Positions 2,494 through 40,247 of a stretch of DNA of 64,000 nucleotides are shown here, piece by piece. How positions within the stretch are numbered: position 1 is the first letter of the stretch; each line of letters begins with the position of its first letter. Origin of the DNA: Chloropicon primus (taxonomy: Eukaryota); contig CP060754.1 of assembly GCA_023205875.1 (NCBI GenBank), forward strand, positions 124,001-188,000, given 5' to 3'. The position numbers and the translations under genes were made by a program. The notes under the pieces were generated by a model. That model made no database searches. It saw only the letters and a list, made by a program, of their open reading frames with translations, and was not told the DNA's origin.

Positions 2494-2829
2494 AGTGCAT
2501 CAGTCGGGGAACATTAGTACGTGCAAGAATCCCTTTTTGTAATCCACCACACTCTCCAACTCCGTCCGTTGTTGGCGCCATCGAAACCGTCCGCATAAGT
2601 TGACTGCAAATTCCAGATTTTCCTTTCGTCTACTGCATGTTCAAAAAGTTTTTCAATACGGATACGATCGTACAGACGAGTCTCGAGTCGAACGAAAGGA
2701 CGCTCGAGGGGCAAAGGAACGACTTCGGCAGCCCTTGAACCGTTGACCCAGTCCAGGAGATACATGCAATGACGCTCTGGCGCGCAGGAAGGTAGTCGCA
2801 AGTTTCACCCCCCGCCAAAGGAAGGTGTG

Positions 2830-3775
2830 ATGTTTCGCTCCCGAGGGTCCAAGAGGAGGGGAGGGAACAAGGTAAGTGGTAATAACCATCCCCGGTTTGG
2901 GTGGAACTGCCTGTTGTCCGTAGCGTTGGCGGAGGCACCATCACGTTCCTCAAGCTGACGACGAGGCTCTTGATGTGTCCAGGTGGTTCGCGCTGTGAGG
3001 ACTTCCATTGGTTGGATAATACCGCAGGCGAGGAAGAGGGACGAGCAAAGCGAGGAGAAACAGAAACAGCAAAGCAGGGAGGATTTCGCCAAGGAACTCA
3101 ATCAAAAGGTAGGGGCTTTAGTTTCGCATTCCTGTTAAGGTTGTGGGTGAATCCTGACGCCGAGTTTGATCTCCAACCCTGCAGATAAAGAGCGCCCGGG
3201 GCCTGGGGAGACGCATCTCCTCGGTCTTCAGGAGAAGGACGAGCACCATCGCACCAGCTGAAATCCTCAAGATCCAGAAGAGGAAGGAGAACGGTGCGAG
3301 GGGCCACGAGCAGTCCATCGAGGACGTGCTGAGGGCGAAGCAGCAGCAGCACCACCACCGGGTGCCTCCGCCGCCACCACTTGGGGACACGGGGTCGCCC
3401 GGGCGTCGAACCTCTGGGCTTCGACTCGCTGGTCTTGGGAAAGAGTTTGTGTACAGGGACTTTATGCCACACTACGTGGAGAGGCACGACAGGTATGAGA
3501 CTTTTGACTCTCTGCTGAAGCGAGCGAACAAGTGGATAAAAGACCAGCAGCTGCAGGTGCTCACACTTGAGACCCTCCTCGTCCCGGCAGGGAATCTGCC
3601 CGGGAGGGATTCGTCGTCCCTGGACAAGTTTCTATCGGTGGAAGTGCTGCGAATATGGTACGACAAGAACCAGACGTTGCAGCAGTTCCTGAGATCCAAC
3701 AAGAGAGAGCTGCCGAAGACCTTGTTCTCCTCGCACTATTTTGGAAAGAAGGTCAAATCGTACTTTTTGTGCTGA
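2830..3775 (+). CDS. Hypothetical protein, 3 exons (2830-2871, 2983-3108, 3185-3775)
   Basis: GT-AG introns keep the frame (MFRSRGSKRRGGNK|VVRAV...ELNQK|IKSARG...); globular-looking C-terminal part YRDFMP...YETFDSLLKRANKWI. Confidence 0.55.
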
Positions 3776-3929
3776 TGAGATGGGTGCACGGCGGACAGCG
3801 GCTCGCTCCACTCAAAAACTGTTTTCATAACAAACTTCATATTATGGTACTTTTAAGTTGTAAAATACATCAGTCCAGTGCAATGGACATTAAAAAACTG
3901 CCTCCACTTGACGTCGAACGTCAAAAGCT

Positions 3930-5144
3930 CTAAGACAGGTTCTGCAAGTTGTTCTGAATGACCATCCAATATGATGTTGGCAGGCTTCTCAGCTTCTTCC
4001 ACTTGGGCACGTACGCCCTCTGGGTGAAATTGTCGTAATCATTGTTCTCCACGCTATCGAGGATCTGCTGGTAAAGGACGAGGGCGCTCAGGACGGGCCA
4101 GCGCGCGTTCTCCTCCAGCTTCATCACCCCATCCTCCGCCATCTTGAAGTACTGCCTCGCCCTCTCGATCTGGAACTTCATGAACTGCCTCCACCTCTCG
4201 TCCGTGACCCCGTCCTTGCTCACGAGGGAGCAGCTCATGACCTCCTCCTCCGATATCCCGAACCTCTCCAACTCGTCCAGGGGGATGTAGATGCGGTTCC
4301 TGTAAGTGTCCTCCCCCACGTCCCTCAAAATGTTTGTGAGCTGGTTCGCGATCCCGAGAGCCAGCGCCGCCGAGTACGTCTCCTCGATCTCGCCCGTGAA
4401 CTGGGGCGCGATCCCCATGACGGGGGTGGTCATCAGCCCCACCGTGCCCGCCACCCTGTAGCAGTACTCGTAGAGCTCCTCGAAGCTGTTGTACCTCGCC
4501 TTCACCAGGTCCATCCTCATGCCGTCGATCATGTCCCTGAAGGGCTGGATGTCGACGGGAAACTTGGCCACGGTGTCCGACAGAGCCGCGTCAAGCATGT
4601 CGTAAGGCTTCCCCGCGAATATGGCCTCGAGCCTCTCCTCCCACCTCTCCAGGGCCTTGGGGGTTATCCTGGAGGCGTGCGGGCCGTCCACCAGCTCGTC
4701 CGTGCGCCTGCACCAGACGTAAATGGCCCAGATCGCCCTCGCCTTCTCCTGCGTCATCAGCTGCGTCCCGAGGTAGAACGTCTTGGCGTAGTACTCGGTC
4801 ACCAGGCCGCACCGCTCGTAGGACTCCTCCAGGGCCTGAGGCGTCAGCTCGGCCAACGGAGCTGCGCGACCCTCCGCGAGGTCGCCCAGGGTGAACTTCT
4901 CGCTCCGCGCCACGGAGCGCTTCAGGCCGTTGTCCTCCGAGGGGCACTCTACCTCAAGCTCCGCCGGCTGCTGCGCCACGGCCCTCGCCGTTGTCGGACC
5001 CCCGACACCCCTCCCGACGCCCAGGGCTCCCTGCCCCTGGCACCTGCCTTGGAGACGGGGCAGCCCCCTCGTCGTGGTGGCCGTTCCCCTCGCGCTCCCC
5101 ATCCCCCTCGCACCTCCCACTGCCATCCCTCCAAGCTTGGACAT
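3930..5144 (-). CDS. PSY: Phytoene synthase, plastid-targeted
   Basis: [52 protein letters not shown] motifs. Confidence 0.97.
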
Positions 5145-5866
5145 GGACTCGACACCGAACAGCACCCTGCAACGTGAACGTCTCGCCGGAAGCAACCCCG
5201 TGTCACACCCCCTTTCGGCTCTTCTCTTCCCAGGGGGTGGTCTTGTCTTATCTTATCTTATCGGAAAATCCACTTTATCTCCCCCGATAAGTCAAAATCC
5301 GGCCCAAGGCAAGCCTTCCAGCCTGCGCGTGTGTGTTGTTTTCGTGTTCCCCCCCGATACGTTCGTCTCTCTTTCCCTCCCTCACCCCACTTGGACTCGT
5401 TTGTTCCTCCTTCCCTCGTCTTCCAAGTCGTCTTCCAACTGCCCCGCTTCACCTCTTCGCCTCTTCGTCCTCGCCTCTGCCGTCCGTCCAATCCCAATCT
5501 CGTCCCCTCCTGGCCACCAATCCAAATCCAAAGCGGGAGGAGTATGGAAATTTCCATTATATCGTCTTATATCGAATATTCGGCGGCGGCGGCGAGGCAC
5601 GCCTTTTGCCTTGCCGAGAAAGAGGAACGCAGTTAGGGAACGAGAGTTCGCGAGCGAGAGAGAAGAAAAAAAAAACACGAACAGGTGTTGAGGAAGATAT
5701 TAGCAGGTGAGTGAGGGACGGAGGACGATAAGAACTTCATTTCCTCGCGAGGGTGGGTGCGTCCAAGTGCTTGGACTCTCGCGCGACTCGTGTGCGCTGA
5801 CACTTTCGCTGCTCCTCTCTTCGATTGCTGCAGAAACTTCAGAGGAGGACTAGTGTGCATAACAAC

Positions 5867-6289
5867 ATGTCTGATGGAGAAGTAGAGACCCCAGTCGAGG
5901 CCCCAGCCCCAGCCGTTGGAGAGCCCCTTGACCTCATGTCTGCCTTGCAGATGGTCTTGAAGAAGGCCTTGGCTTGCCACTCCTTGATGCGCGGACTCCA
6001 CGAGGTCGCCAGGACCATCGAGAAGGGCGAGGCCCAGCTCGTCGTCCTCGCCCAGGACTGCGACAACGGAGACTACGTCAAGCTCGTCGAGGGCCTTTGC
6101 AAGGAGAAGAGCATCTCTCTCCTCAAGGTCCCAAAGAAGTCTCAGTTGGGAGAGTGGTGCGGACTCTGCAAGATCGATGCCGAGGGCAACCCAACCAAGG
6201 TTGTCAACTCCTCCTGTGCCGCCGTCACCGACTACGGTGAGGAGACCGAGGGCCTTGCCGTCCTCATGGAGCACCTCAAGAGCGCTTAA
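5867..6289 (+). CDS. RPS12: 40S ribosomal protein S12 (eS12)
   Basis: ALQMVLKKAL...RGLHEV, LGEWCGLCKIDAEGNPTKVVNSSC; probable 5'-UTR intron ~5707-5833. Confidence 0.95.
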   Translation: MSDGEVETPVEAPAPAVGEPLDLMSALQMVLKKALACHSLMRGLHEVARTIEKGEAQLVVLAQDCDNGDYVKLVEGLCKEKSISLLKVPKKSQLGEWCGLCKIDAEGNPTKVVNSSCAAVTDYGEETEGLAVLMEHLKSA

Positions 6290-6741
6290 GGAGGCAGGCT
6301 TGGCAGACGACGGGGGCTGCTTTTCGGAAGGTCTGCTTGACGTTCGGAAAACGCTACTTGTTCTGTTAAAAACCCAAACCTTTTTTTTTTCTTTTAATTT
6401 GTCAATCCATACTTTACGTTTTTTGGCACATCCTTGGAGTTCTCTTTCGCACAGCCTCCCCCCCTCCCCCCCCTCGACCTCTCCCCCCTCCTCGGCTCCT
6501 TGGCTCCTCCCCCACCAACGACTCGACCCTTGCCCAAAAGAACCAAGCCCATTCTCTCTCCCAAAAATAGCTAAAAGCGAAAAGGTAACCGCCTCGTCGT
6601 CGTCAGTGCCCTTGCTCGAAGGGGGGGGGAGAGCTCTCGGGGAGGGGTCCAGGGCGCGTGCCGAGACAGCCTGCGCCGCGGCTTTCGTCCCGGCGTCCCT
6701 CTTTCGCGTTGTGCCCGCTGCTGCTTTGTGTTTGGTGAGTT

Positions 6742-8448
6742 ATGGGTCAGGAGGGGGAGGATCGAACGAAACGGACGACGAGGGGGGGTCTGGTTCTGTC
6801 CGCGGGCTCGGGAGGCGAGGAGGAGGGAAGCGGCGCGGGGGACGGAGCGGTCGGGAGCCTCTTTCCCGAAGACAACGTTCGCGGCGAGTGGCGGGTGAGG
6901 CGACAGCTGACGCTGACAGACGACGAGGACGACACCGCGGGGCTGCTGAAGGGGCAGCAGCCCTTCCATCACGAGAGGGGGAGGGAAGCGAATGGGGTTG
7001 GGGGCGCCACCATGGCGGAGACCTGGAAGAGCGTCGGCTCGGCAAGTGGAGGGGACTCGGACGTCTTCGGGCTTCCGTTCTCCCCGCAGCAGGGGGAGGC
7101 CGGGAAGGCGAGCGCGGGGGCGTCCTCGGGGTCGAGCTTGGCGGACGTGCTCTTGGAGGCAAAGAACAGCACGGGGCACATGATTCTGGGGACGAAGATG
7201 AACGTGCTGCTCGTGTGCGCGCCCTTGGCTTGGGCTTCGAATCACTGGTCCTGGGGCAGCGGCCTCACCGCGGTGCTGGCGCTCCTGGCCCTGTGCCCCC
7301 TCGCCGAAAGACTTGGGTTCACCACGGAGCAGCTCGCGCTGAGAACGAACGACACGCTGGGAGCCTTGCTCAACGTCACTTTTGGGAATGCCACCGAACT
7401 GATTCTCTCCATCGTGGCGCTTAAGCAGGCGGAGATCACCCTGATTCAGATGAGCCTCATCGGGTCCATCCTGTCCAACCAGTTCCTTGTCCTTGGCTCC
7501 GCCATGGTAGTCGGAGGACTGAAGCACGGGGTCCAGCTGTTCGAGAGGACGTCTGCCGTGCTGCACCTCAGTCTGCTGGTGGGAAGCAGCGTGGCGCTGC
7601 TGATACCCATGGCGATGTCCTACGCGGGAGGGGAGACAGGGGTGAGGTCGCCCGTCGCGTGGCTCTCGAGAATCATTTCCGTGGTGATGATCGCCGCGTA
7701 CGGCTTGTTCCTCTACTGCATTCTGAAGAGGGAGAAGAGCCAGATCAAGCCGTCCCCGCCGGAGAGCAGCCGGTTAGCGGCGTCGGCGTTCTCCATCCTG
7801 CACAAGTCAGTCACGCGGCTGCATCGGTCCAGCATGGAAAGGCCAGCGCCTTTCTTTAAGGCTGGGACCAGCCCGGACATCGAGCTGGGCAGTGCGATGG
7901 GGAGCGGGAGGTCGACACTGGAGAGCGCCAGGTCGCTGGGATCGCTGCAGGAGAGGCCAGAGGAGGAGGAGGAGGAGGAGGCCCCCGTGATCAGCACTCT
8001 CTCTGGCGTGCTCTGGCTGGGCCTCGTTGCGATTCTCATCTCCGTCATGTCAGACATCCTGGTCGACAACATCGAGGCTGGGGCGGCGCAGGAGCTCCAC
8101 GTCCCCTCGAGCTTCCTCTACACGATCATTGTCCCCATCGTTGGCAACGCGGCGGAGCACACCTCCGCCCTCATCTTCTCCTATAGGGACAAACCAGACA
8201 TCGCCTTTGGCATTGCAGTCGGAAGCAGCGTGCAGATCGCCCTCCTGGTCATTCCCGCCTGCGTGCTGATCGCCTGGCCCATGGGGCAGGACCTCACGCT
8301 GCGTTTCGGCAGCTTTGAGACGTGCGTTTACGCGGCCTCCGTTCTCCTCCTCTTCACCACGATCAGCGACGGTCTGAGCAACTGGACCAAAGGCGCCCTC
8401 CTCATCACCTCATACCTCGTCATTGCCATTGGGGTCTGGTTCCAGTGA
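6742..8448 (+). CDS. CAX: Ca2+/H+ (cation/proton) exchanger, CAX family
   Basis: alpha-1 repeat TFGNATELI, alpha-2 repeat PIVGNAAEH, GSILSN, acidic central loop, multiple TM segments. Confidence 0.92.
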   Translation: MGQEGEDRTKRTTRGGLVLSAGSGGEEEGSGAGDGAVGSLFPEDNVRGEWRVRRQLTLTDDEDDTAGLLKGQQPFHHERGREANGVGGATMAETWKSVGSASGGDSDVFGLPFSPQQGEAGKASAGASSGSSLADVLLEAKNSTGHMILGTKMNVLLVCAPLAWASNHWSWGSGLTAVLALLALCPLAERLGFTTEQLALRTNDTLGALLNVTFGNATELILSIVALKQAEITLIQMSLIGSILSNQFLVLGSAMVVGGLKHGVQLFERTSAVLHLSLLVGSSVALLIPMAMSYAGGETGVRSPVAWLSRIISVVMIAAYGLFLYCILKREKSQIKPSPPESSRLAASAFSILHKSVTRLHRSSMERPAPFFKAGTSPDIELGSAMGSGRSTLESARSLGSLQERPEEEEEEEAPVISTLSGVLWLGLVAILISVMSDILVDNIEAGAAQELHVPSSFLYTIIVPIVGNAAEHTSALIFSYRDKPDIAFGIAVGSSVQIALLVIPACVLIAWPMGQDLTLRFGSFETCVYAASVLLLFTTISDGLSNWTKGALLITSYLVIAIGVWFQ

Positions 8449-8695
8449 AGAGTGCAATCATGTAATCCCAAAATTTTCAAGTCAGAGAGTCAGTGTCCTT
8501 GCTTGCCGTTATCAAGGGAAACAAGGAAACCTGATGATCCACGATTTCAGAGGCAGCAAGTGTGTGATCCTCCACAACTTCGACTTCGTGTCGTGTCCCC
8601 TTTGGCCGTTTTGAAAAAACGAGAATTTCCAGGGAGGCCAGCCGCACCTGGAAAGAAAAATCAGAATCAGAGGGTTTCCATCGCGAGGGAGAGCG

Positions 8696-8742
<47 letters not shown>

Positions 8743-8751
8743 AGGGAAGAC

Positions 8752-9375
8752 ATGGACCTGTCAGAGACGTTCACGAAGCCGCTCCAGGACTTCGCTAAGA
8801 ATTCTGTCAGACTCATTAAGAGGTGCACGAAGCCTGACGCGAAAGGTAAGGACTCGAGAGAGAGAGGGGGGCTTGACTCACGCACTCACGCACGCGAGGA
8901 GGGAGAGGGGGAGGGAGGGGGGGAACCCGGCCGAGGGAGAGGGAAGTGGGCCTTCGGCGGCGACGGCGGCGGTGGTGCACATGCGTGTGTCGAGGTGCTG
9001 CTGCGAGCGCGGAGCAATTGTCGGCGGTCTTGTTCGAGGGTGCGAGAGCGCAGATCGGAGTGTCTCGGGCCCCTGATCTCCCTCTCGGCCACCAGACCGG
9101 ACGCTTCCCCGTCAGCAAGCGGCTCGCCGCTGGACCCCGGTAGCGTGGGTTGCTGTTGCGGCGAACTGACACCTCTCGTTCGCTCGTTTTATTTCTCCTT
9201 GCTGTTCCTCTGGCGATGACACACAGAGTACAAGAAGATCTGCTTTCAGACGATAGTTGGTTTTTCCATCATGGGGTTCATTGGTTTCTTCGTGAAGCTT
9301 ATCTTCATCCCCATCAACAACATCATCATGGGAAGTTCCGCGGCTGCCGAGGCTGCTGCCGAGGCTTCTGCTTAA
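8752..9375 (+). CDS. SEC61G: Sec61 translocon gamma subunit, 2 exons (8752-8845, 9227-9375)
   Basis: [24 protein letters not shown]...[23 protein letters not shown] after splicing G|GTAAG...CAG. Confidence 0.93.
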
Positions 9376-9469
9376 GAGCAGCAAAAGAAGTACAATAATA
9401 TCCTAGTTGAGAATATAAGAAATTGGTTCTGTTTTTACTCCCCTCCCTGGTGCTCCCCACCCAACGCCG

Positions 9470-10993
9470 TTACCTTTGCTTTATCCTGTGGATGTAGACT
9501 TTGGGAGAGAGCACGACGACGAGAGGAACGCCCCTCGAGAGCACAGCCTCCTTCAGGCTGGAAAAGTCCCTGGGGAGCTCGAAGCGGGCATACCCGTCTA
9601 TCTGCCTCACGAGCTCGTAGCTTGGCCGCTCGGCGTCCGCAGTGACTAAATAATCGAAGGTGTGCTCGCCCTGACACTCATCCCAAGGCGTCTTGTCATA
9701 CGTCCATGCTTCGTAGTCTTCTCCAAACCTGCTGACACCTGTCATCGCAGGAAACACGTCTATGTGCACGCTCACCTTGGCGTCCTTGGCCCCCAGCCCC
9801 ATCCTGTGAAGCTCCTCAAAAGCTTTGCCCCCTGGATAATTCATGCAGGACACCGTTGCAGCGACGTAGGTGTGGAGGAGGACCACAGCAATAATGCCGA
9901 CGGAGAGGAAGCCCAACCACAGTCTTTTCCTGCCCTTCATCTTGAACACCCTGCTCAGACCAGTAGCCGCGACCACGTTGAAGTACGGCAGAACGGGGAA
10001 TAAGAATCTGACTTCCTTGTGGGGCAGCATCGAGTAGAGCAGGACGTAGGCCAAGGCGATCAGACCAAAGGGCCTTATCCGCCTCTCGTACAGCGCTCCG
10101 ATCAGCACAAAAAACGCGCTCCCTGACAGTGCTCTGGGAAGAGCTGATGTGAAGTACCAATGAGGGGAAGAGACGCCCCACTCGGAGCTTCTGTTGTCCC
10201 CCGCTGGGTTGTTGAAAAGGAACACCTCCAGCTCTGGCCACAGCAACCTCCCCCAAAATACGGAGTCCACCGCCACCGTCAGAACAACAGAGGCGATGCT
10301 TGACACAACGCCAGTAGCCACGAGCCCCACCAGCGTCATCCTTCGCAGCAGCAGGAGAGCGACGGAGGCTGGGGCTAGCAAGAGAACCATGTCACAACGG
10401 AAGATCACGCCGGCGCAAGTCAGGTACTGAACCACCCTCCGAGCATCCCCCTTCTCGTCCCGGATGAGACTCGCCAAGGCCAGGTTCGAAGCGATGACAG
10501 CGAAAGTGTTCGGAAGGAACCGTGAGGCGTAGAACATGGTGTGGAATTGCGAAGCCTGCAGTACCCCATAGCACGCGCCGGTTCCCCTCCCGAATCTCTT
10601 TGCCACCGCCTGCTGCACTCTCACGAAGGTCCACGATGCGAACAATCCTAGAACTAAGCGGGCCGTCGCCCTTTGGAAAGAAAGTCAGCGAGTCGGAAAC
10701 GCAGATCGAGGACCATTCCCTCGTACTTACAGGTTCGCAAGCTTCGGCAGGGCGAGCGCCTCGGTGGCGTACTTGAATGGCGCCGCTGTAACCGCCGTGG
10801 CCAAAGCTCCGAGAAACGTTCTGGGCACCACTCCAGGAAACTCCTGGTGGTCATAACGTTCCAGGTCAAAGCCGTGGTAAAGCAGATCGTGGACTGCTTG
10901 CACGTTGAAGCTCTCCTCGACTTTGGTGTAGGGCGCTACCCACAGGTGGGTCAACACCGCGAGCGGGATCACCAAGGTGCAGAGGGCCTCCAT
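9470..10993 (-). CDS. ALG12: Dol-P-Man alpha-1,6-mannosyltransferase (GT22), 2 exons (intron ~10671-10730)
   Basis: [47 protein letters not shown]. Confidence 0.93.
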
Positions 10994-11108
10994 TCCTCTC
11001 TCTCTCTCTCTCTCTTCTGGTTTATGGAATGGAATTTTTGCCTCGAGCTGTCAAGGAGGGCGAGCGCAGCGAGGATTGATGGATGGAAAACGAAGCAAGC
11101 AAGGTGGA

Positions 11109-12440
11109 TTAAAATGGCGAGACTTTAAGGGCAAGGCGGATCAGAACTTCCGGCACGAGCCTCCTGTTCTTCGAGCTTTTGAAGTCCGTCTCGGGCTTGA
11201 TCACGCTGAGGACGCCTTCCGAGAGCCTGTCCCCGGTCCCTCTCATGGGGTTCTCTATCAGGGGCGTCGTGTGAGTCTCCCCCTCGTAAAATATCCTGTC
11301 CACTTCCACCCCTGCCCTCTCCAGCACGTGGCCGAACTCCTCGGCATGCTCGTAAGGAATGGAGTCATCATCCTTGCCGTGAAGCAGGGTGACGGGCGGG
11401 AGGGAGTCGACCACGCTACTGTACTTGTCGGGCTCCTCCACGTAGTTGAAGATCCTGGTGGCCGGGGATATGTCCTCAAAGCAAGTCGCGCCATTCACAG
11501 ACATTATGGCGTTCAGGAGACTGAGGTGCAGGCCCCTGCTGTTGAGGTGGTCCGAGAGTCGGTCCATGTCGTACGCTCCCGAAACCCCAATGAAAGCTTT
11601 GATCTGCTGCGGGGTCCAAGACGAGGCTTTGCCTGAACCTTTGCCCCCAGCCAGGTGCAGCTTCTCGGCGCACTCTATCAGGGCAAGGGACGAGAGGTGC
11701 GCACCCGCGGACTGCCCGACAAGGCACACGTTTGTTGGGTCCCCGCCGTACTTGTGAATGTTATTGATCACCCACCCGATGCCCCGGTCCACGTCCTCCA
11801 GCATCTCTTTGATTCTGCCCTGCGGAAAGTTCCTGTAATCCAGGGAGACGACAAGAACGCCTTCCTTGGAGAGGACCTTGCCAAAGAGGGAGCCCCAAGC
11901 CTTGTAGCCGATGATCCAAGCCCCGCCAGTCACAAAAATGGTCACGGGGAGGTTGTAAGGCGCCTCGACTCCAGGAGGCAGGTACAAGTCGCACCTGTTC
12001 CTCGGGTTCGGCCCGTACACCACGCTCCTCTTGACCCGCGAGGAGAAGAAGTAGAAGAAGGCCACCTGGATGAAACCCGGCATAAGGAGCGCGGAATACA
12101 CCAAAAGCCGGAGCAACATCAGGACCCACTTTTTTCCCGGGACGAGGGCCATCTGCCGGCCGAGCTCGAGCGTGAGCTGCGCGACGATGAAAGCCTCGCT
12201 CATGAGCATGTGCAAGAAGCTTGCAGAGTACCTGGCCACCTTGGACGGGAAGAGCACGAAGTGTAGGAACTTCCGTATGTACTTGTCCTTCATGGTGAGC
12301 ATCAGGAACGCCCCGTCCCCCTCGCTCCTCGCTCTCCCCGAGCTGTTCGAGCTCGAGGTCTGCGCCGGTTCCCCCTCGGCTTCCCCGCCCCCCTCGCGCA
12401 GCACCTCGTACCCCCCCTTCTCCCTCGGTCTCCAAGTCAT
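11109..12440 (-). CDS. Isoprenylcysteine alpha-carbonyl methylesterase (ICME-like alpha/beta hydrolase); start uncertain
   Basis: FVTGGAWIIGYKAWGSL, DYRNFPQG, GQSAG nucleophile elbow. Confidence 0.88.
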   Translation of the reverse strand: MTWRPREKGGYEVLREGGGEAEGEPAQTSSSNSSGRARSEGDGAFLMLTMKDKYIRKFLHFVLFPSKVARYSASFLHMLMSEAFIVAQLTLELGRQMALVPGKKWVLMLLRLLVYSALLMPGFIQVAFFYFFSSRVKRSVVYGPNPRNRCDLYLPPGVEAPYNLPVTIFVTGGAWIIGYKAWGSLFGKVLSKEGVLVVSLDYRNFPQGRIKEMLEDVDRGIGWVINNIHKYGGDPTNVCLVGQSAGAHLSSLALIECAEKLHLAGGKGSGKASSWTPQQIKAFIGVSGAYDMDRLSDHLNSRGLHLSLLNAIMSVNGATCFEDISPATRIFNYVEEPDKYSSVVDSLPPVTLLHGKDDDSIPYEHAEEFGHVLERAGVEVDRIFYEGETHTTPLIENPMRGTGDRLSEGVLSVIKPETDFKSSKNRRLVPEVLIRLALKVSPF

Positions 12441-12772
12441 CCTCCCCCTTCTCCTCAAGTTGTACTGTGCCCCGAGGACGTTACCGTTTCCCTCCCCGTT
12501 CCCCGCCGCTCCCCTCCCCCTTCCCTCCGCCACCCCAATGAGTCTTCCTCCCTCCTTGTGCCCCTCCGTCGCTCCCTCTCGCCCCTCCCCTCGCCCCTCC
12601 CCTCCTCCCTCGTCTCTCCCTCCTTTCCCCCAGAGGGCAGCGACCAATGACTTGGTTTCAAACGCCCGTCTCGTCTTCTGTCTCGACCTCGTCGAAAACC
12701 AGAGTGGAGAGGGAGAGGGAGAGTGGCTTGGCTTTTGGGCTTGGGCTTGGTGTAGTGGTCTGCGGTGGGGGG

Positions 12773-13600
12773 ATGAGGGTGAAGAGGCCGAAGCCGAAGG
12801 ATGTGATGAAGTTGCCGGACGAGCTCTTCGTGCAGCCGCAACTCCTGGACCAGCTGGCGAACACGCAAGACCGAGGGGCGGTGTATTTCGGGGAGTGCGT
12901 GTACCCGCCGTGGAAGAGGCAAAGGAAGAGCGCAAAGGACGAGAAGAAGTTCAAGAGTCAGGCAGGGAAGCTCAGCGTGTCGGCCAAGCACGTGAAGGGG
13001 AGTGACGTGGTCAAGGCTCCCAAGAAGCCCTTCACGCTGGAGGAGGAGAAAATCATATTGGAAGAAAGGAGGAAAGGCAGGACCTGGGATCTGATCGCGA
13101 GAATGCTTTCGGGTCGAACCGCAGCCAAGGTCAAGAAGCACTACAATCTTCTCGTGAAGAACCGGGTGGAACCGCCCAAAGTGGTGCCGGTGGTGGCGAG
13201 GGCAAGCAAGCAGGTCACCCCGCAGGTGATCCCGCCTCCTGCGGCCTACGGCGCCGCGGCTGCCACGGTGGTACCCCTTACGAAGGAGGAGCAGGAGACG
13301 AAATTGTACAACAAGATAGTGGTCGTTCCGGACAAGTTCGACCAGAAGAAGAGGCCCCAGCTCTTCTTCGTGCTCAATTTCAACGAGGTTGTGCTCAAGT
13401 GCCACCTGATTCCTCTCCGCGAGGTCGGGGTCTTCAAGGGGGACGGAAAGACCAAGTGGATGCTGGTTCCGGAGGGGCAGGGGGAGGAGCTGGAGGATGT
13501 GCCTGCTGGCAAGTGCACGATTATCAGCTCAGAGGCCGTGAACAAGGTCCCGGATGCCGACAAGGAAGCCTGGCACATCTTGGACAGGAGGTACGAGTGA
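12773..13600 (+). CDS. Myb/SANT-domain protein
   Basis: KKPFTLEEEKIIL...GRTWDLIARMLSGRTAAKVKKHY single Myb repeat. Confidence 0.7.
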   Translation: MRVKRPKPKDVMKLPDELFVQPQLLDQLANTQDRGAVYFGECVYPPWKRQRKSAKDEKKFKSQAGKLSVSAKHVKGSDVVKAPKKPFTLEEEKIILEERRKGRTWDLIARMLSGRTAAKVKKHYNLLVKNRVEPPKVVPVVARASKQVTPQVIPPPAAYGAAAATVVPLTKEEQETKLYNKIVVVPDKFDQKKRPQLFFVLNFNEVVLKCHLIPLREVGVFKGDGKTKWMLVPEGQGEELEDVPAGKCTIISSEAVNKVPDADKEAWHILDRRYE

Positions 13601-13737
13601 CCGCGCCCGGGGAGAAGCGCCTCGTCTTTCCCTTTCGTTTGGCTTGAGGGGAAGGTTTTCGCGCGACAATATTTGTTGTAAGTTTATTATATTTCTGTAC
13701 TGTTAACGGCGACACGGAAGCTTTCCGGTGCGAGACC

Positions 13738-15324
<1,587 letters not shown>

Positions 15325-30457: not shown

Positions 30458-31924
30458 ATGGGGAGGGAGAGTGCAAGGTATGACTACGTGGTGGTGGGAG
30501 GTGGGGTGGCGGGGACGTGCTGCGCGAGGTTGTTGTGCTGCAAGGCGCCCAAGGCGTCGGTGTGCCTCGTGTCTCCCACGGAGAGCTTGAAGACCGTCAA
30601 AGTGGTGAAGCGCGTTACGGACAATCTCGACGAGCTCACTGTGATCGAGCAGCCCGTGGGGTCGTTCAACGACGCGAACCTGGAGTTCGCCAAGGACTAC
30701 GTCGAGAGCATCGACCCGGAGGAGAAGACCTTGGTGCTGGGCGGGGGCCGGAGGATCTCGTACGGGAAGCTCGCCGTGTGCACCGGTGCGAGCCCGAGGG
30801 TCCACCTGTCGGAGAGCCCCCGGCTGATCACGGTGAGGGACACGGACAGCGCCGAGTCCCTGAGGGAGGTGATATCCAGGTCGAACACGAGGCGGGTGGT
30901 GGTCGCGGGAAACGGCGCCATCGCCCTGGAGGTGATAAACAAGCTCAGCGGGGTCGAAGTGGTCTGGATCGTGAAGCATGACCACGTTGGAGACTCCCTT
31001 CTGGACGTGGACGTGGCCCTGCACTTGCTGGAGTCCTTCCAGAAGAGGAACAAGGGCACCTTGCGCGTGGACCAGAGCAGGGGGGGGGCGGAAGACCAGG
31101 GAGGGGGCGGGGGCGCGGCAGGAAAGATCAGGGAGGAGAGGTTCAGGACCCCGCCGGTGAAGCCCGACTTTGGCCACGCCCTCGGCCCCAAGTGGCACGA
31201 GGCCTTCCCCAAGTCCAAAGACGGCCGGGAGACGAGCTTGAGGGTGGTGTACAATAGGAAGCTCGTGGGTGTGGACGAGGGGACCGAGGGCGATTCCGAG
31301 GGGTGGCCAATCTCCGCCGTGCTTTCGGATGGGGAGAGAATTGGGGGCGACGTCATCATATCTTGCATCGGGGTCGTGCCAAACACGACGTGGCTTCCCA
31401 GAGATCGGTTTCAGATGGCGCCGGACGGCGGGCTCAGCGTGAGCGCCAGGCTGGAAACCAGCGTGAAGGACGTCTACGCCGCCGGGGACGTCTGCACCCT
31501 CGACGAGGAGAACCTCGGCCCCCAGTTCTTTCAGATCAGGCTGTGGTCCCAGGCCAGGATGATGGCCGAGTTCGCGGCTCACTGCATGACTGACTCGAAG
31601 GAAGCGGAGTTCTTGGACCTCGGCTTCGACCTCTTCACCCACGTGACCCACTTCTTCGGCTCCAAGGTGATTTTGCTCGGCCTGTACGACGGGCAGCGCC
31701 TGGCGGGGGAGCCGGAGAAGGACAAGGTCCTCTACACCCGAGAGACCGAGGACACCTTCGTCAGGGTGCTGCTCCTGAGGGGAAGGATGCAGGGCGCCGT
31801 GCTCGTGGGGGAGACCGACCTCGAAGAGGTCTTCGAGAATCTCATCCTCGGTGGAATAGACTTGTCCAGGTTCGGTCCCGAAATGCTCGACCCCGAGAAC
31901 GACATCGAGGACTTCTTTGATTAA
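30458..31924 (+). CDS. PYROXD1: Pyridine nucleotide-disulfide oxidoreductase domain-containing protein 1
   Basis: VVVGGGVAGTCCA, VRDTDS, GNGAIALE, ALGPKW, QIRLWSQAR, C-terminal DIEDFFD. Confidence 0.93.
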   Translation: MGRESARYDYVVVGGGVAGTCCARLLCCKAPKASVCLVSPTESLKTVKVVKRVTDNLDELTVIEQPVGSFNDANLEFAKDYVESIDPEEKTLVLGGGRRISYGKLAVCTGASPRVHLSESPRLITVRDTDSAESLREVISRSNTRRVVVAGNGAIALEVINKLSGVEVVWIVKHDHVGDSLLDVDVALHLLESFQKRNKGTLRVDQSRGGAEDQGGGGGAAGKIREERFRTPPVKPDFGHALGPKWHEAFPKSKDGRETSLRVVYNRKLVGVDEGTEGDSEGWPISAVLSDGERIGGDVIISCIGVVPNTTWLPRDRFQMAPDGGLSVSARLETSVKDVYAAGDVCTLDEENLGPQFFQIRLWSQARMMAEFAAHCMTDSKEAEFLDLGFDLFTHVTHFFGSKVILLGLYDGQRLAGEPEKDKVLYTRETEDTFVRVLLLRGRMQGAVLVGETDLEEVFENLILGGIDLSRFGPEMLDPENDIEDFFD

Positions 31925-32139
31925 GTTAAAGTAATAATAAACTAAGGGCCCCACGACCACCATCCATTCGTTCGTTGCGTGTTTGTCCAAAACCCAGCCC
32001 CTTATGGTGTTCAGACATCAGATCAAAAACAGCACACAGAAAAGTCACGAAAGGACGGTAGGGAAATCACAGTCAATACTGGAAGCACAGAGGCAAGTTC
32101 TCCTTTCCACTGAAAGAGAGAAACACGGAGAGAAACGAA

Positions 32140-32309
32140 GACCGGCCACAACTTACCTGTTAGTTTTCTGCAAAGGTCGTTTCACCGAGTTTGTAAGTTT
32201 CTCGGCAGGGTAATTCAGCCCTACCACGACCATTCCACCGTACATGAACGAACACTTCCGCCCACGCACGGCAGCCCGTACTAACAAACGTATGTGCAAC
32301 CCTGAGGAG
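32140..32309 (-). ncRNA. Candidate Fanzor omegaRNA scaffold
   Basis: Directly 3' of the Fanzor stop; nested stems whose G-U pairs work only on the minus strand; 7-bp loop/3' complementarity. Confidence 0.6.
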
Positions 32310-34481
32310 TTACACACTTTTTGGTTGACGCAAGTGCTTCAGGAGGACGTTGCGTGCCCCGTTCACATCCCGACCGCACTTGAAGCCACACTTCTGGCAC
32401 TTGTACACCTCTGCTCCACCCAGGTTGTCCTTGATGTGTCCGCACTTGCCACAGGTCTTGGAGGTGTACTCCTCCGTCACGATCGCCAGCTCACTGCCGT
32501 GCAAGAGCACCTTGGAAGCCAAGAACGTTCTGAACGCATAGTGCCTCAACGTCAAGAGCGTGCGAGCCGTCTTCTTCCTGATCACTCGGCGTCTCCCGTT
32601 GTTGTTCTTCTTCACCATGTCTTGGGACTTGAACTCCGGGAGGAGGATTGTGTCGAACCTCCTGCATAGATCGTTGGCTACCTTTTTGTGAAGCTCGTTC
32701 GTCAGACCTCGAAGTTTCTCCATGCAGGCGTATTGCTGTCTCTTCAAGTCGCGGCGGTCGAGGTAAGGGAGCTTCACCTTTGGGTCTTTGCGCTCGGAAA
32801 TGATCTCATCAATCCTCCAGCAGAGGTTGAACAGCCTCGCGAAGCCTCGCTCGCCCTTGGCATACTCCCCGACGCCTTCTTGCGGCGAGTACGACGTCTG
32901 AAAGGTCCTGACTCCCGGATCCAGGGCGACAACCTTCCGCTTGTTCTCAGGCTTCAGGGGTGGCAGGCGATCCCATGGCGTCGCGATGGGAATGTGCATG
33001 TGGAACTGCCCAAGGCGATTTCTTGTGATCTTCACGGCACCCTCGATCTTGCCCCCGGGGATCTCCTCCGTCAAGTACAGGGGCCCGCCGGCCATCTTCT
33101 TCTTGAACACCTCCAGCTTGGTCCACTTGCGTCGTTTGTTGTGCTTGGTGTCATCCTTGTGCCTCGTGTTTGGCCTTTCGATCGTCTCCACGTTCTTTAA
33201 CTCTCTTGCATCAATTTCAATGGTCCAAGAGCTCGGTTGCTGACGTTGACGATACTTGAGAACGAAGCGGTGCCCCTTCTCCTCGCCGCGCTCCTTCATC
33301 GCTTCCTGCTTCGCGATGTTCGAATCCCATGCCTTGATGAGACTTCGCACGGCAGCTTGTCTGATGGCACAGGGGGTATCCTTCAGCCAAGGATGCTTCT
33401 GATTTACAAAGGCCCCGCTAACGTAGTCCCGGTCCTTGCCCACTTGGATGCGAAAAGCTCTGCCTCCAATTTGGCTCTCGAGTCTCTTCTCTCTGGCCGC
33501 GAAAAGCTCTGCCTCCTGTTTTGTCCATGGCCGTGGAGAGCATTGGATTTCTTTCAGCTCTTTCTCCAGGCCCTCAAAGACCTCAGGGCCTCGAGGTTTG
33601 GCCGTCACAAATCTGTCCAGCAGGACGGTCCAAACCAGCGGAAAACGCTCCTTCTTGACCGCCTCCAAACACTTGTTGTATGTGAAACGCGCAGCTCCCA
33701 TCCAGTTGCAAAGGCACTTCGCCTGCTCAGGGTTCAAGCGCATCCTCAGCTTCCTCGTCCGTATCACCGTTCGCTCCGACAATAGCTTGGAGGTCTTCAG
33801 TTTCTGCCCCCTCTTCCTTTTGGCGGGCGACTGCAATGCCTCGACGGATACCACAGAATCTTCTGGAAGGTTCAAGCACGACCTCCATCCCGTCTTCGGA
33901 CACTTTACCTCTTCAAGTTCTCTCTTGATCGATGAGAACCAGGTCTTCTTCACGCTGTCGTCCGCCAAGCCACCCGGCTGCTTCCCTGCTTTCTTCCCCC
34001 TCTTGTTCTTCTTCTTCTTACCCTTCTTCTTGTTCTTCTTCTTGCCCTTCTTGCGAGGCTTCTTGCGAGGCTTGCCTGACGAGCTCGAACTCTCACCCGC
34101 AGAGGAAGCCGCCTCCGGCGGCTTCCCCTTCCGCTTCCCCCCCCGCTTCTTGCGAGGCGTGCTCGAACCCTCCTCGAAAGCAGAGGCGGGGTCGTCCAGC
34201 GGCTTCTCCTTCCGCTTCCGCCCCCGCTTCTTGCGAGGCGTGCTCGAACCCTCACCCGCAGAGGCGGGGTCGTCCGCGATAGGAAGCAGGCACAACGAGT
34301 AGAGCAACTGCAAGCCCTGATTCCAGAACCGACGTAACGGCCGCTCCGTCGTCGGAGACTCCTGCCCCGACTTCGAAGCGCCCTGAGCATGACTCTCGCC
34401 AGAGTGCGACCTCCTTGTGGAACTCGTCGAGCCACTCCCCTGCTTCTCCTTTTTCTTACGGCGCTTCCCTGATCGCGCCAT
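32310..34481 (-). CDS. Fanzor (Fanzor2/IS607-TnpB-like) RNA-guided endonuclease, 723 aa, intronless
   Basis: HTH/WED RTRKLRMRLNPEQ...WMGAARFTYN; RuvC-I VVALDPGVRTF; RuvC-II ILLPEF...EEYTSKTC; zinc ribbon CGKC..CQKC; RuvC-III GRDVNGARNV. Confidence 0.93.
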   Translation of the reverse strand: MARSGKRRKKKEKQGSGSTSSTRRSHSGESHAQGASKSGQESPTTERPLRRFWNQGLQLLYSLCLLPIADDPASAGEGSSTPRKKRGRKRKEKPLDDPASAFEEGSSTPRKKRGGKRKGKPPEAASSAGESSSSSGKPRKKPRKKGKKKNKKKGKKKKNKRGKKAGKQPGGLADDSVKKTWFSSIKRELEEVKCPKTGWRSCLNLPEDSVVSVEALQSPAKRKRGQKLKTSKLLSERTVIRTRKLRMRLNPEQAKCLCNWMGAARFTYNKCLEAVKKERFPLVWTVLLDRFVTAKPRGPEVFEGLEKELKEIQCSPRPWTKQEAELFAAREKRLESQIGGRAFRIQVGKDRDYVSGAFVNQKHPWLKDTPCAIRQAAVRSLIKAWDSNIAKQEAMKERGEEKGHRFVLKYRQRQQPSSWTIEIDARELKNVETIERPNTRHKDDTKHNKRRKWTKLEVFKKKMAGGPLYLTEEIPGGKIEGAVKITRNRLGQFHMHIPIATPWDRLPPLKPENKRKVVALDPGVRTFQTSYSPQEGVGEYAKGERGFARLFNLCWRIDEIISERKDPKVKLPYLDRRDLKRQQYACMEKLRGLTNELHKKVANDLCRRFDTILLPEFKSQDMVKKNNNGRRRVIRKKTARTLLTLRHYAFRTFLASKVLLHGSELAIVTEEYTSKTCGKCGHIKDNLGGAEVYKCQKCGFKCGRDVNGARNVLLKHLRQPKSV
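34050..34275 (-). repeat. Three imperfect ~78-81 bp tandem repeats encoding basic NLS-like units in the Fanzor N-terminus
   Basis: DDPASAGEGSSTPRKKRGRKRK / DDPASAFEEGSSTPRKKRGGKRK / EAASSAGESSSSSGKPRKKPRKK. Confidence 0.85.
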
Positions 34482-34698
34482 GACTGCTAGGGTTTCACTC
34501 GGCGTCCTCCTCCCTTCCTCTCGCGAGGTAAGATTTTTTACCAGTGCCTTGCCCAGCAAGTGAGAACACGAGCAAACATTTTGTGGGTTGTCCTTTGGGT
34601 GTGACCAAACTGGTATACACTGGAATCCCACCAACAGGGGAAAACCTCCAACACCGAAACGAAAAATGGGGGGAGGAAAAGATTAGACGAAGGAGGGA

Positions 34699-35277
34699 AT
34701 GATGATTGCTGCTGCTCGTTTGGGTGTCAGGTCTGTGGGGGGAAGAGGAAGAGGGCTCTTACTCACGACGAGGTCAAGGTCGGTTGGTAGAAGTGCGGCA
34801 ATGGCGGGGGGAGACTCGTTGTACAAGTACTCCGCCTTGGACATCGACGGCAAGGAGACAAAGTTGTCGAAGTTCGAGGGGAAGGTGAGCCTTGTTGTTA
34901 ACGTGGCGTCCTTCTGAGGCTCGACGAAGCAGTACGCAGGTCTCCAGAAGCTTTATGAAAAGTATGAGGACGACTTCGTAGTGCTCGCCTTCCCTTGCAA
35001 TCAATTTGGCAAGCAGGAGCCTGGAAGCGAAGCGGAGATAAAGGCTTTCGTGGCGGACAAGTACGGGGTGACGTTTCCTATGTTCTCGAAGATCGACGTC
35101 AAGGGCCCTGAGGCCCACCCGATCTACAAGTTCTTGCAGGCGAACGAGTCTGACGACGTGGGCTGGAACTTCTTCAAGTTTCTCGTCAACAAGGAGGGCG
35201 AGGTCGTCGGGAAGAGACACTCCAACAGAGTTACTCCCGAGGACCTGGACGACGATATTGCTGCCCTCGTGGGCTAA
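34699..35277 (+). CDS. GPX: Selenocysteine glutathione peroxidase, copy A (UGA=Sec at 34915-34917)
   Basis: VVNVASF-U-GST, LAFPCNQFG, WNFFKFLV all in one frame; SECIS downstream. Confidence 0.93.
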
Positions 35278-35344
35278 GCGCTTCCCGTCTTCCGAGCGAG
35301 CCTCCCTTGCGAGAGCAACCCGGTGCGGGGGCGGGACAGGGACA

Positions 35345-35400
35345 GAAGATCATGACCGGGGCACCTCAAATACGCATGGTGCTTTGTGATTACGACACGC
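35345..35400 (+). promoter_or_regulatory. SECIS element of GPX copy A
   Basis: ATGAC-cggggcacc-tc-AAA-tacgcat-ggtgctttg-TGAT: AUGA/GA quartet, 9-bp stem, apical AAA. Confidence 0.85.
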
Positions 35401-35507
35401 ATGAAAAATGCTAGCTTTTAACCTTTCCGCCCTTGTAAACGGAGTTTTTTTTGTTTTGTTGTTGTTTTACACGAAAACACGAGAACCAAAAAAATCGCTC
35501 AAGCAAT

Positions 35508-35590
35508 CACGTTCCCCCTCCCCCTCCGCCCATGGGAGTACTTGGAAGACACCATGGTCCGGTCCGGTCGCACTCTCGTTCCCCCCTCTT
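35508..35590 (-). pseudogene. ~80-bp inverted fragment of the 5' end of the GPX gene that starts at 39576
   Basis: Reverse complement of ~39545-39623 (ATGGTGTCTTCCAAGTACTCCCATGGGCGG...), with small indels upstream of the ATG. Confidence 0.85.
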
Positions 35591-38623: not shown

Positions 38624-38784
38624 TTCGTGCGCTGGTTCGTGTGCGCGTGCGCGCGCGGAGGGCTGAGCGGATTGGTGATTGCTTGAGCGATTTTTTTGGT
38701 TCTCGTGTTTTCGTGTAAAACAACAACAAAACAAAAAAAACTCCGTTTACAAGGGCGGAAAGGTTAAAAGCTAGCATTTTTCAT

Positions 38785-38840
38785 GCGTGTCGTAATCACA
38801 AAGCACCATGCGTATTTGAGGTGCCCCGGTCATGATCTTC
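38785..38840 (-). promoter_or_regulatory. SECIS element of GPX copy B
   Basis: Mirror image of 35345-35400. Confidence 0.85.
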
Positions 38841-38907
38841 TGTCCCTGTCCCGCCCCCGCACCGGGTTGCTCTCGCAAGGGAGGCTCGCTCGGAAGACGG
38901 GAAGCGC

Positions 38908-39486
38908 TTAGCCCACGAGGGCAGCAATATCGTCGTCCAGGTCCTCGGGAGTAACTCTGTTGGAGTGTCTCTTCCCGACGACCTCGCCCTCCTTGTTGAC
39001 GAGAAACTTGAAGAAGTTCCAGCCCACGTCGTCAGACTCGTTCGCCTGCAAGAACTTGTAGATCGGGTGGGCCTCAGGGCCCTTGACGTCGATCTTCGAG
39101 AACATAGGAAACGTCACCCCGTACTTGTCCGCCACGAAAGCCTTTATCTCCGCTTCGCTTCCAGGCTCCTGCTTGCCAAATTGATTGCAAGGGAAGGCGA
39201 GCACTACGAAGTCGTCCTCATACTTTTCATAAAGCTTCTGGAGACCTGCGTACTGCTTCGTCGAGCCTCAGAAGGACGCCACGTTAACAACAAGGCTCAC
39301 CTTCCCCTCGAACTTCGACAACTTTGTCTCCTTGCCGTCGATGTCCAAGGCGGAGTACTTGTACAACGAGTCTCCCCCCGCCATTGCCGCACTTCTACCA
39401 ACCGACCTTGACCTCGTCGTGAGTAAGAGCCCTCTTCCTCTTCCCCCCACAGACCTGACACCCAAACGAGCAGCAGCAATCATCAT
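38908..39486 (-). CDS. GPX: Selenocysteine glutathione peroxidase, copy B (UGA at 39270-39268)
   Basis: Same peptide sequence as copy A. Confidence 0.93.
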
Positions 39487-39575
39487 TCCCTCCTTCGTCT
39501 AATCTTTTCCTCCCCCCATTTTTCGTTTCGGACGGAAAACCAAACAGAGGGGGAACGAGAGTGCGACCCCGGACC

Positions 39576-40247
39576 ATGGTGTCTTCCAAGTACTCCCATG
39601 GGCGGAGGGGGAGGGGGAACGTGGGTTCGTTGCCGAAAGCGGTAGTAGGCTTGACCTTGCTTGCTGCGGGGTTTTACGTGGTCACGAGACTGGGGTTGGG
39701 AGGAAGACAGGCGCAGAGACCACACGCTGTGAGCTTGAGCGCTCCGGGAGGGGAAGCAGCGAAGCAGCCCGTGTACGACTCGTTGTACAAGTACACCGCC
39801 TTGGACATCGATGGGGTAGAGACTAAATTGTCGAAATTCGAGGGGAAGGTGTCGCTTATTGTGAACACGGCCACGTACTGAGGCTCGACGTACCAGTACG
39901 GCGACCTCCAAAAGCTGTACGAGAAGCACAAGAAGAGGGGGCTCGTCGTGATGGGCTTTCCTTGCAATCAATTTGGGAGGCAGGAGCCTCACGACGAGGC
40001 TACGATCAAGCAGTTTGTGGCGGACAAGTACGGGGTGACGTTTCCTATGTTTTCCAAAGTTGAGGTCAAAGGGCCTCATGCTCATCCCATATTTCGTTTC
40101 CTGACCTCCAGCGAGAAGGCCGGAACGGAGGAGATTGGGTGGAACTTCTTCAAGTTCTTGGTCGATCGGAACGGCCACGTCGTCAAGAGGTACAAAGGCG
40201 CTGACAAGCCCTTCGCAATCGAGAAGGACATTCTCGAACTCTTGTGA
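39576..40247 (+). CDS. GPX: Selenocysteine glutathione peroxidase paralog with N-terminal membrane/signal anchor (UGA at 39879-39881)
   Basis: IVNTATY-U-GST, MGFPCNQFG, WNFFKFLV in frame; hydrophobic AVVGLTLLAAGFYVV. Confidence 0.92.

Follow-up and report, generated by a model that had tools for sequence, protein, structure and literature searches.

The locus considered here lies in a stretch of 64,000 nt from Chloropicon primus (CP060754.1, positions 124,001-188,000; hereafter the window). Its minus strand contains a Fanzor2 gene nested within a mobile element:

32002-34653, minus strand: multicopy mobile element of the Fanzor2* type, devoid of TnpA, 2652 bp long in the window copy and delimited by contig depth and published heterozygous insertions
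32310-34481, minus strand: Fanzor2 ORF of 723 amino acids with its ATG at 34481, marked by the DPG motif, the alternative Glu and the third RuvC Asp

The encoded protein contains the Pfam domains Cas12f1-like_TNB and HTH_OrfB_IS605, and its best match among solved structures is ApmFz2 (PDB 9B0L, E 5.5e-20). The DPG motif is found in RuvC1 (ALDPG, residues 519-523), the canonical Glu is absent, with LLPEF at the canonical site, and an alternative Glu (E671, in TEEYTSK at 669) lies six residues ahead of the zinc finger (CGKC at 677). DPG and a Glu six residues before the zinc finger are given as Fanzor fingerprints in the available portion of Yoon et al. (PMC10711439). With the third RuvC Asp also present, the RuvC triad is intact at the level of sequence motifs. 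A metagenome scan provided homologues from 80 loci, the seven closest showing 39-56% identity; an IS607 TnpA is intact in one of these (L005) and, as found with the L005 TnpA as query, partial in three more (L001, L002 and L004). The same query detected no IS607 TnpA between 33600 and 34700 of the window at E<0.5. Based on the match in PDB and the homologues beside IS607 TnpA, rather than on a tree, the protein is assessed as nearer to Fanzor2 and IS607 TnpB than to Fanzor1. Its N-terminal extension (33990-34260, minus strand) contains an 81-bp duplication and Lys/Arg-rich repeats that resemble nuclear localisation signals.

The closest relatives are 91-99% identical at the protein level, and their top database cluster has 46 members, annotated as putative IS605 transposases of C. 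primus. Such genes number 25 in Lemieux et al., where their RNA-seq depths are 0.7-88, multi-mapping not being excluded (PMC6731263 Supplementary Data 6). The family is known as the Fanzor2* family of C. primus, and Yoon et al. 2023 (PMC10711439; bioRxiv 10.1101/2023.08.09.552727) describe its element as non-autonomous, the TIRs being degenerate and the 5-nt TSD variable.

The left end of the element is TGTTGG at 34653 on the minus strand, where a loose contig end is also found. Scoring of TIR alignments gave no location for the right end (~32002), which emerged from DNA contigs of four runs placed on 31950-34850 (at most three samples, one possibly identical to the source of the window) and from published insertions. 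In two runs, X1 and X2, the summed depth between the first bin and 34665 is about 2400-14400, and past 34665 it is 217-316; across 31950-32143, beyond the scaffold end described below, it still amounts to 3300-7800. In metagenome X8 one piece covers 32126-32590 with four differences and another begins at 32002, and one piece in metagenome X9 covers 32139-32441. Loose ends of X1 and X2 contigs at 32139 repeat window positions 32124-32136 and thus represent a small indel, not flank. A search for six motifs in the first 400 characters of each row of PMC6731263 Supplementary Data 8 matched three of 225 rows, which are heterozygous insertions of 2707, 2664 and 2664 bp. Within these characters, two of the three show differing flanks, then TGTTATGGTG, and then, as judged by eye, a match to the window from 32002 through guide and scaffold, while the third starts with the left end. 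The lengths of 2664-2707 bp agree with an element of 2652 bp or slightly more; an end at 32157 would predict 2497 bp. Other copies terminate in ...CCATAACA, the final CA of which is missing from the window copy, and by this comparison the full element is estimated at about 2654 bp with TG...CA termini. In the other copies the termini read TGTT.../...AACA, and the two flanks of the window copy share no 5-nt duplication. Two other candidates for the right end, 32158 (with a similar TGTT...GTTTTC) and 31980, are ruled out by the contig depth and the published insertions. Two of these insertions carry, in the portion available, about 25 extra bases ahead of the right end, for which an alignment artefact or a longer duplication is possible.

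The left end is abutted exactly by an 857-bp, 100% identical inverted duplication (34654-35510 and 38675-39531) that includes a glutathione-peroxidase-like gene, with a further matching pair close by (35508-35585 and 39549-39623). The X1 and X2 contig for the duplicated segment departs from the window at 34654; the left flank of the window copy appears rearranged, and the junction may be specific to the strain, a rearrangement induced by the transposon, or a feature of the assembly. The peroxidase-like ORFs halt at an in-frame TGA beyond which the frame continues (34915-34917 on the plus strand, its copy near 39270 on the minus strand, and another near 39880 on the plus strand), the contexts being VASF*GST and TATY*GST. 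We take this TGA to be a likely selenocysteine codon, a trait of the family.

The region at the 3' end of the Fanzor2 ORF is structured and noncoding on the sense strand only, as judged from shuffle tests on both strands. The initial annotation had proposed an omegaRNA at 32140-32309, and all the motifs that it named sit where it had placed them. On the minus strand this interval folds beyond shuffled controls (z -3.03, none of 200 shuffles as good), and on the plus strand it does not (z -0.11); however, z -3.03 is weak alone, because five of 158 background windows of 153 nt reach z <= -3 (25 shuffles each). A refined scaffold of 161 nt (32317-32157, minus strand) attains z -5.03, and is predicted to comprise the following parts:

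32292-32317, minus strand: 11-bp hairpin that straddles the stop codon and is predicted to form the 5' part of the omegaRNA, present in the MFE structure (P 0.97)
32277-32290, minus strand: stem-loop 1 (nexus) with a 3-bp stem and an 8-nt loop, 32287-32281 being the 5' strand of the pseudoknot; compensatory changes in five sequences (P 0.90 with the pseudoknot strands kept unpaired)
32235-32274, minus strand: 18-bp G-U-rich hairpin (P 0.96-0.98)
32175-32231, minus strand: 3' branched domain with a closing stem, a 7-bp hairpin and a weak CCGAG/CUCGG hairpin, exceeding the matching part of the homologues in length
32193-32199, minus strand: loop AACUUAC, by sequence a 7-nt complement of the first guide bases and splice-donor motif, and a candidate mask
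32157-32163, minus strand: CUAACAG, the conserved 3' strand of the pseudoknot and predicted scaffold end, from alignment and covariation

The fold is dominated by two helices absent from the initial annotation, namely the 18-bp hairpin (32274-32235) and the 11-bp stop-codon hairpin. When helix probabilities are computed with the pseudoknot strands kept unpaired, the 7-bp hairpin GGUAGGG/CCCUGCC holds up (P 0.93), whereas GUACGG/CCGUGC falls to P 0.00 because the 18-bp hairpin (0.96) displaces it. Under the same constraint the proposed closing stem reaches P 0.92 and CCGAG/CUCGG a marginal 0.35-0.49; as both drop to ~0.01 once downstream sequence is added, they are model-dependent. The 3' domain of the initial annotation taken together with the guide (32234-32140) folds, by itself, no better than shuffles (z -0.95). 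An Rfam scan of 31800-32700 recovered no family, its one match being at chance level (E 3.4).

Comparison with the homologues points to a conserved pseudoknot. Among the seven closest, L006 is without downstream DNA and L003 and L007 (52% and 48% identical proteins) are without the motif; L001, L002, L004 and L005 show a short stem with an 8-nt loop 16-20 nt past the stop codon, and a complementary stretch plus N-G 45-90 nt further on. When these four were aligned to the window by MAFFT without guidance, both parts of the pseudoknot came into register, the window pairing being UUGUUAG (32287-32281) with CUAACAG (32163-32157). In this set of only five sequences, selected for showing the motif, 92.7% of the 55 cells of pseudoknot and stem-loop 1 are paired and six of 11 pairs have changed on both sides, a score reached by none of 500 shuffles, with slid controls at or below 49%. 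The pairing is thus maintained against homologues of 42-56% identity. It corresponds to what the annotation had mentioned as a side idea, UGUUAG near the stop codon with CUAACA near 32160. The pseudoknot that it had preferred, AACUUAC with GUAAGUU, is a genuine complement in the window (chance 0.45% in exact register, 3.3% anywhere in the first 12 nt), but has no 7-nt counterpart in the four homologues (longest 3, 3, 6 and 2 nt), and GUAAGUU falls at the start of the guide position rather than inside the scaffold. Because the conserved pseudoknot is UUGUUAG/CUAACAG, the scaffold is predicted to end at 32157 (+/-1), 7-17 nt earlier than the 32150-32140 suggested before; as T follows the terminal G in all four homologues, the boundary may instead be 32156.

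A pattern scan recovered the layout of stem-loop 1 and pseudoknot from 17 of 103 downstream regions, compared with 3.5 for shuffled sequences (8 at most); of these regions only the five sequences were used, since the pattern had been drafted after seeing them. A covariance model of these five, searched against the window and 89 of the 145 loci, retrieved nothing but its training set below E 0.01. Three matches to the pseudoknot pattern in viral contigs are attributable to chance, none being beside a Fanzor, and a 19-mer of the scaffold has no exact match in viral contigs. The modelled interval is very likely a Fanzor omegaRNA scaffold with a 3' pseudoknot. In L003 the Fanzor2 gene (52% identical) is flanked by long repeats, direct ones of 272 bp and inverted ones of 83 bp, which begin right after its stop codon (313-1042 and 2897-3248); this locus, which lacks the stem-loop 1 motif, is possibly another capture by a different element.

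Within the window no second copy of the scaffold was found. In copies from elsewhere the two commonest scaffold variants among those listed both lie in loops, at 32253 in the 18-bp hairpin and at 32217 in the 3' branched domain, and a 5-nt insertion behind 32264 is likewise present in copies. A diverged subfamily (X1, X2 and X9; 32270-32457), about 10% different at the ORF end, retains stem-loop 1 and departs from the window at 32270, where the long hairpin starts. One X2 contig shows behind 32299 a partial scaffold and then at least 255 other letters, including a second piece matching 32234-32249; it may represent an omegaRNA locus that is rearranged or in tandem and lacks the normal end of the ORF.

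With the right end at ~32002 and the scaffold end at 32157, the guide position comes to lie about 155 nt inside the element, and judging from these two coordinates the scaffold end is in all probability internal to the element. Two features occupy the intervening tail:

32137-32156, minus strand: element-encoded guide-position sequence common to the copies, starting with GUAAGU; candidate 5' splice site CAG/GUAAGU
32002-32078, minus strand: terminal pyrimidine-rich zone of 77 nt free of AG, with TTGAC at 32076, GTGAC at 32048 and CTGAT at 32021; candidate 3' part of an intron

Conservation among copies had been expected to drop at the guide start; instead the copies are alike for ~155 nt further, to ~32002. 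At the DNA level, therefore, the guide is not drawn from variable DNA beyond the element end, the guide position being common to the copies; at the RNA level it could still be flank-derived, if the tail is spliced. The first ~17 guide bases are common to X1, X2, X8, X9 and the published chromosome 3 copy. One published copy, in noisy long reads and within the portion available, seemingly differs at guide positions 7 and 9 but retains GTAAGT. The unspliced guide of the element reads GUAAGUUGUGG.

The scaffold boundary itself, CAG/GTAAGT at 32157/32156, agrees with the U2 5' donor consensus, and the candidate host introns predicted from sequence in the window show the same donor hexamer, a CTRAC branch and a pyrimidine tract. 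GTAAGT is found at 13 of the window's 128,000 positions, and six strong donor hexamers combined account for 112 occurrences; a strong donor at the position independently fixed by covariation would arise by chance with a probability of about 1e-4 to 1e-3, without correction for hindsight. In the four homologues no donor hexamer stands at the guide start. Pyrimidines make up 63% of the tail (155 nt, or 157 with the CA), which is unstructured (z +0.9). The last AG of the tail lies at 32079, and the absence of AG over the final 77 nt has a chance of 0.016-0.058. Beyond the element, AG occurs at positions 1-2 and 3-4 of two published right flanks, as far as the first 400 characters extend, and the window copy makes an AG at the junction. 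In X1 one left flank has AGGAT as its last bases, and these would also open the right flank of that copy if the TSD is 5 nt. An AG near the flank start is weak evidence, because its background is 0.21-0.44.

Based on these observations we consider it possible, at somewhat short of an even chance, that a working guide is obtained by spliceosomal removal of the tail, which would join the scaffold to flanking host sequence. Transcription would continue past the right end into host DNA, the spliceosome would cut the transcript at 32157/32156 and use a branch point within the AG-free terminal zone, and the scaffold would be ligated to the first AG in the flank, restoring a site-specific guide. Such a guide would match the empty allele just past an AG; this allele would be cut by Fanzor2 and then repaired with the occupied homologue as template, so that the element would be retained or copied in the way described for TnpB. 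The loop AACUUAC, which resembles the 5' end of U1 snRNA, could mask the donor, or the seed of an unspliced guide that matches the element, and the spliced-out tail would be the part recognised by the transposase. This account would explain the position of the donor, the intron-like tail and the retention of a nuclease with an intact active site. The tail length of 155-157 nt is consistent with it, the mean intron size in C. primus being 152-154 bp; against it, the tail contains no CTRAC (CTGAT, TTGAC and GTGAC only), and the internal YAG acceptors with pyrimidine tracts at 32110 and 32079 could compete. In its fullest form, in which the host spliceosome would build the guide RNA of a transposon by removing an intron that starts at the pseudoknot and joining the scaffold to the first flank AG, such that the empty allele of each insertion becomes its target, the acceptor also forms part of the TAM and the U1-like loop gates the step, the proposal is more tentative still. 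Self-protection would need a TAM longer than AG, because the occupied right junction would also read AG followed by the guide match.

Alternatively, the fixed guide might be used unspliced, if an IS607 Fanzor2 once inserted into a carrier with TG...CA ends; its target would be Fanzor-less carriers or one other fixed site, and the donor motif an accident of the insertion site. Such capture by nesting is plausible because the homologues with the same pseudoknot sit at loci with intact or remnant IS607 TnpA, and the sharing of the first ~17 guide bases by X1, X2, X8, X9 and the chromosome 3 copy fits a fixed guide, for which new biochemistry is unnecessary. However, the guide has no other match in the window or the 145 loci (12 nt with one mismatch; 15 nt with two mismatches) and no exact 17-nt match in viral contigs, no contig in the four DNA runs links the tail to the left end, the copy with apparent changes at positions 7 and 9 (noisy long reads, partly available) kept GTAAGT, and the donor coincidence is left unexplained. 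On balance this seems rather unlikely. The donor could also be used with one of the internal acceptors, 32079 or 32110, whereby the fixed guide would be swapped or severed and the nuclease or its mRNA damped, an off-switch as in bacterial IStrons. Splicing of IStrons indeed separates guide from scaffold in the available account (PMC10690162), and here a strong donor is combined with two YAG acceptors after pyrimidine tracts; but the 47-nt intron to 32110 lacks a candidate branch A, the 78-nt intron to 32079 lacks CTRAC, and for the resulting guides neither the window nor the loci offer a convincing target, which leaves this alternative unlikely.

It may further be asked if the locus is a recent relic, whose scaffold was cut off from flank-derived guides at capture, so that useful cleavage was lost and the arrangement persists since the copies are young. 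Copies that are 91-99% identical at the protein level make their conservation explicable by youth alone, and the window copy has lost its terminal CA and has a rearranged left flank. Yet pairing maintained against homologues of 42-56% identity, the confinement to loops of the two commonest scaffold variants among those listed, and the intact catalytic motifs all speak against decay, and we regard a relic as improbable.

The locus is thus a Fanzor2* omegaRNA candidate of a published family, with its structure and boundary corrected. In the literature that we searched on Fanzors with a fixed guide or splicing, with subscription papers mostly outside, no report was found of an internal scaffold end coinciding with a splice donor. 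For TnpB and Fanzor the prevailing view is that the scaffold has to end at the boundary of the transposon, each copy then taking its guide from the flank; the C. primus family departs from this layout although it is mobile, as its heterozygous insertions indicate, and its nuclease is intact. Splicing of the tail onto flanking sequence, if true, would represent a new route to guide RNAs and a mirror image of IStrons, whereas a fixed guide would make this Fanzor a rare case among those of eukaryotes, with a single defined natural target. Either outcome is relevant to the role that Fanzors play for their elements, and tests of the enzyme would need the corrected scaffold of 161 nt.

The comparisons that follow draw on the available portions of the papers cited. 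The Fanzor2* of Yoon et al. belongs to the same protein family (97-99% identical), and a pseudoknot is predicted for it too; in that paper, though, TIR and TSD apparently fall within the scaffold, whereas the window scaffold ends ~155 nt before the right end. The scaffold motifs were not found in the supplement text of Yoon et al. 2023. More generally, Fanzor RNAs as described overlap the right end of the element, and the sequence past that end supplies their variable guide (PMC10432273, PMC10530073), and a nexus pseudoknot is described for TnpB and Fanzor2 (PMC11832414, PMC10690162). The termini of the element, with TGT... ends and a TSD of 4-5 bp (5 nt as reported for the family), are reminiscent of Ginger2/TDD, LTRs and integrase-type elements (PMC2836005); this is a resemblance only, as the window element has no transposase and few bases of inverted repeat. 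With the omegaRNAs of IS607 TnpB and Fanzor2 (ISXfa1; ApmFz2, PDB 9B0L, PMC11832414) the scaffold shares a first stem-loop that pairs with the last scaffold bases, long peripheral stems and a terminal G; it differs in that the element is without TnpA, encodes its guide position and carries a splice-donor motif at the scaffold end. IStrons, which combine a group I intron with IS605 or IS607 (PMC10690162), likewise have a splice site at the boundary of scaffold and guide that competes with the pseudoknot. In the window, by contrast, the motif is of the spliceosomal 5' donor type, a guide would be gained by splicing, and a search of 31800-32700 gave no match to a group I intron model. Finally, the fixed-guide derivatives of TnpB (the Cas12k ancestor and TldR; bioRxiv 10.1101/2025.08.27.672191) resemble the C. 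primus element, if its tail stays unspliced, in having a guide that does not come from the insertion flank, but they are bacterial and nuclease-dead, whereas the window protein has both RuvC triad and zinc finger and belongs to a recently mobile element.
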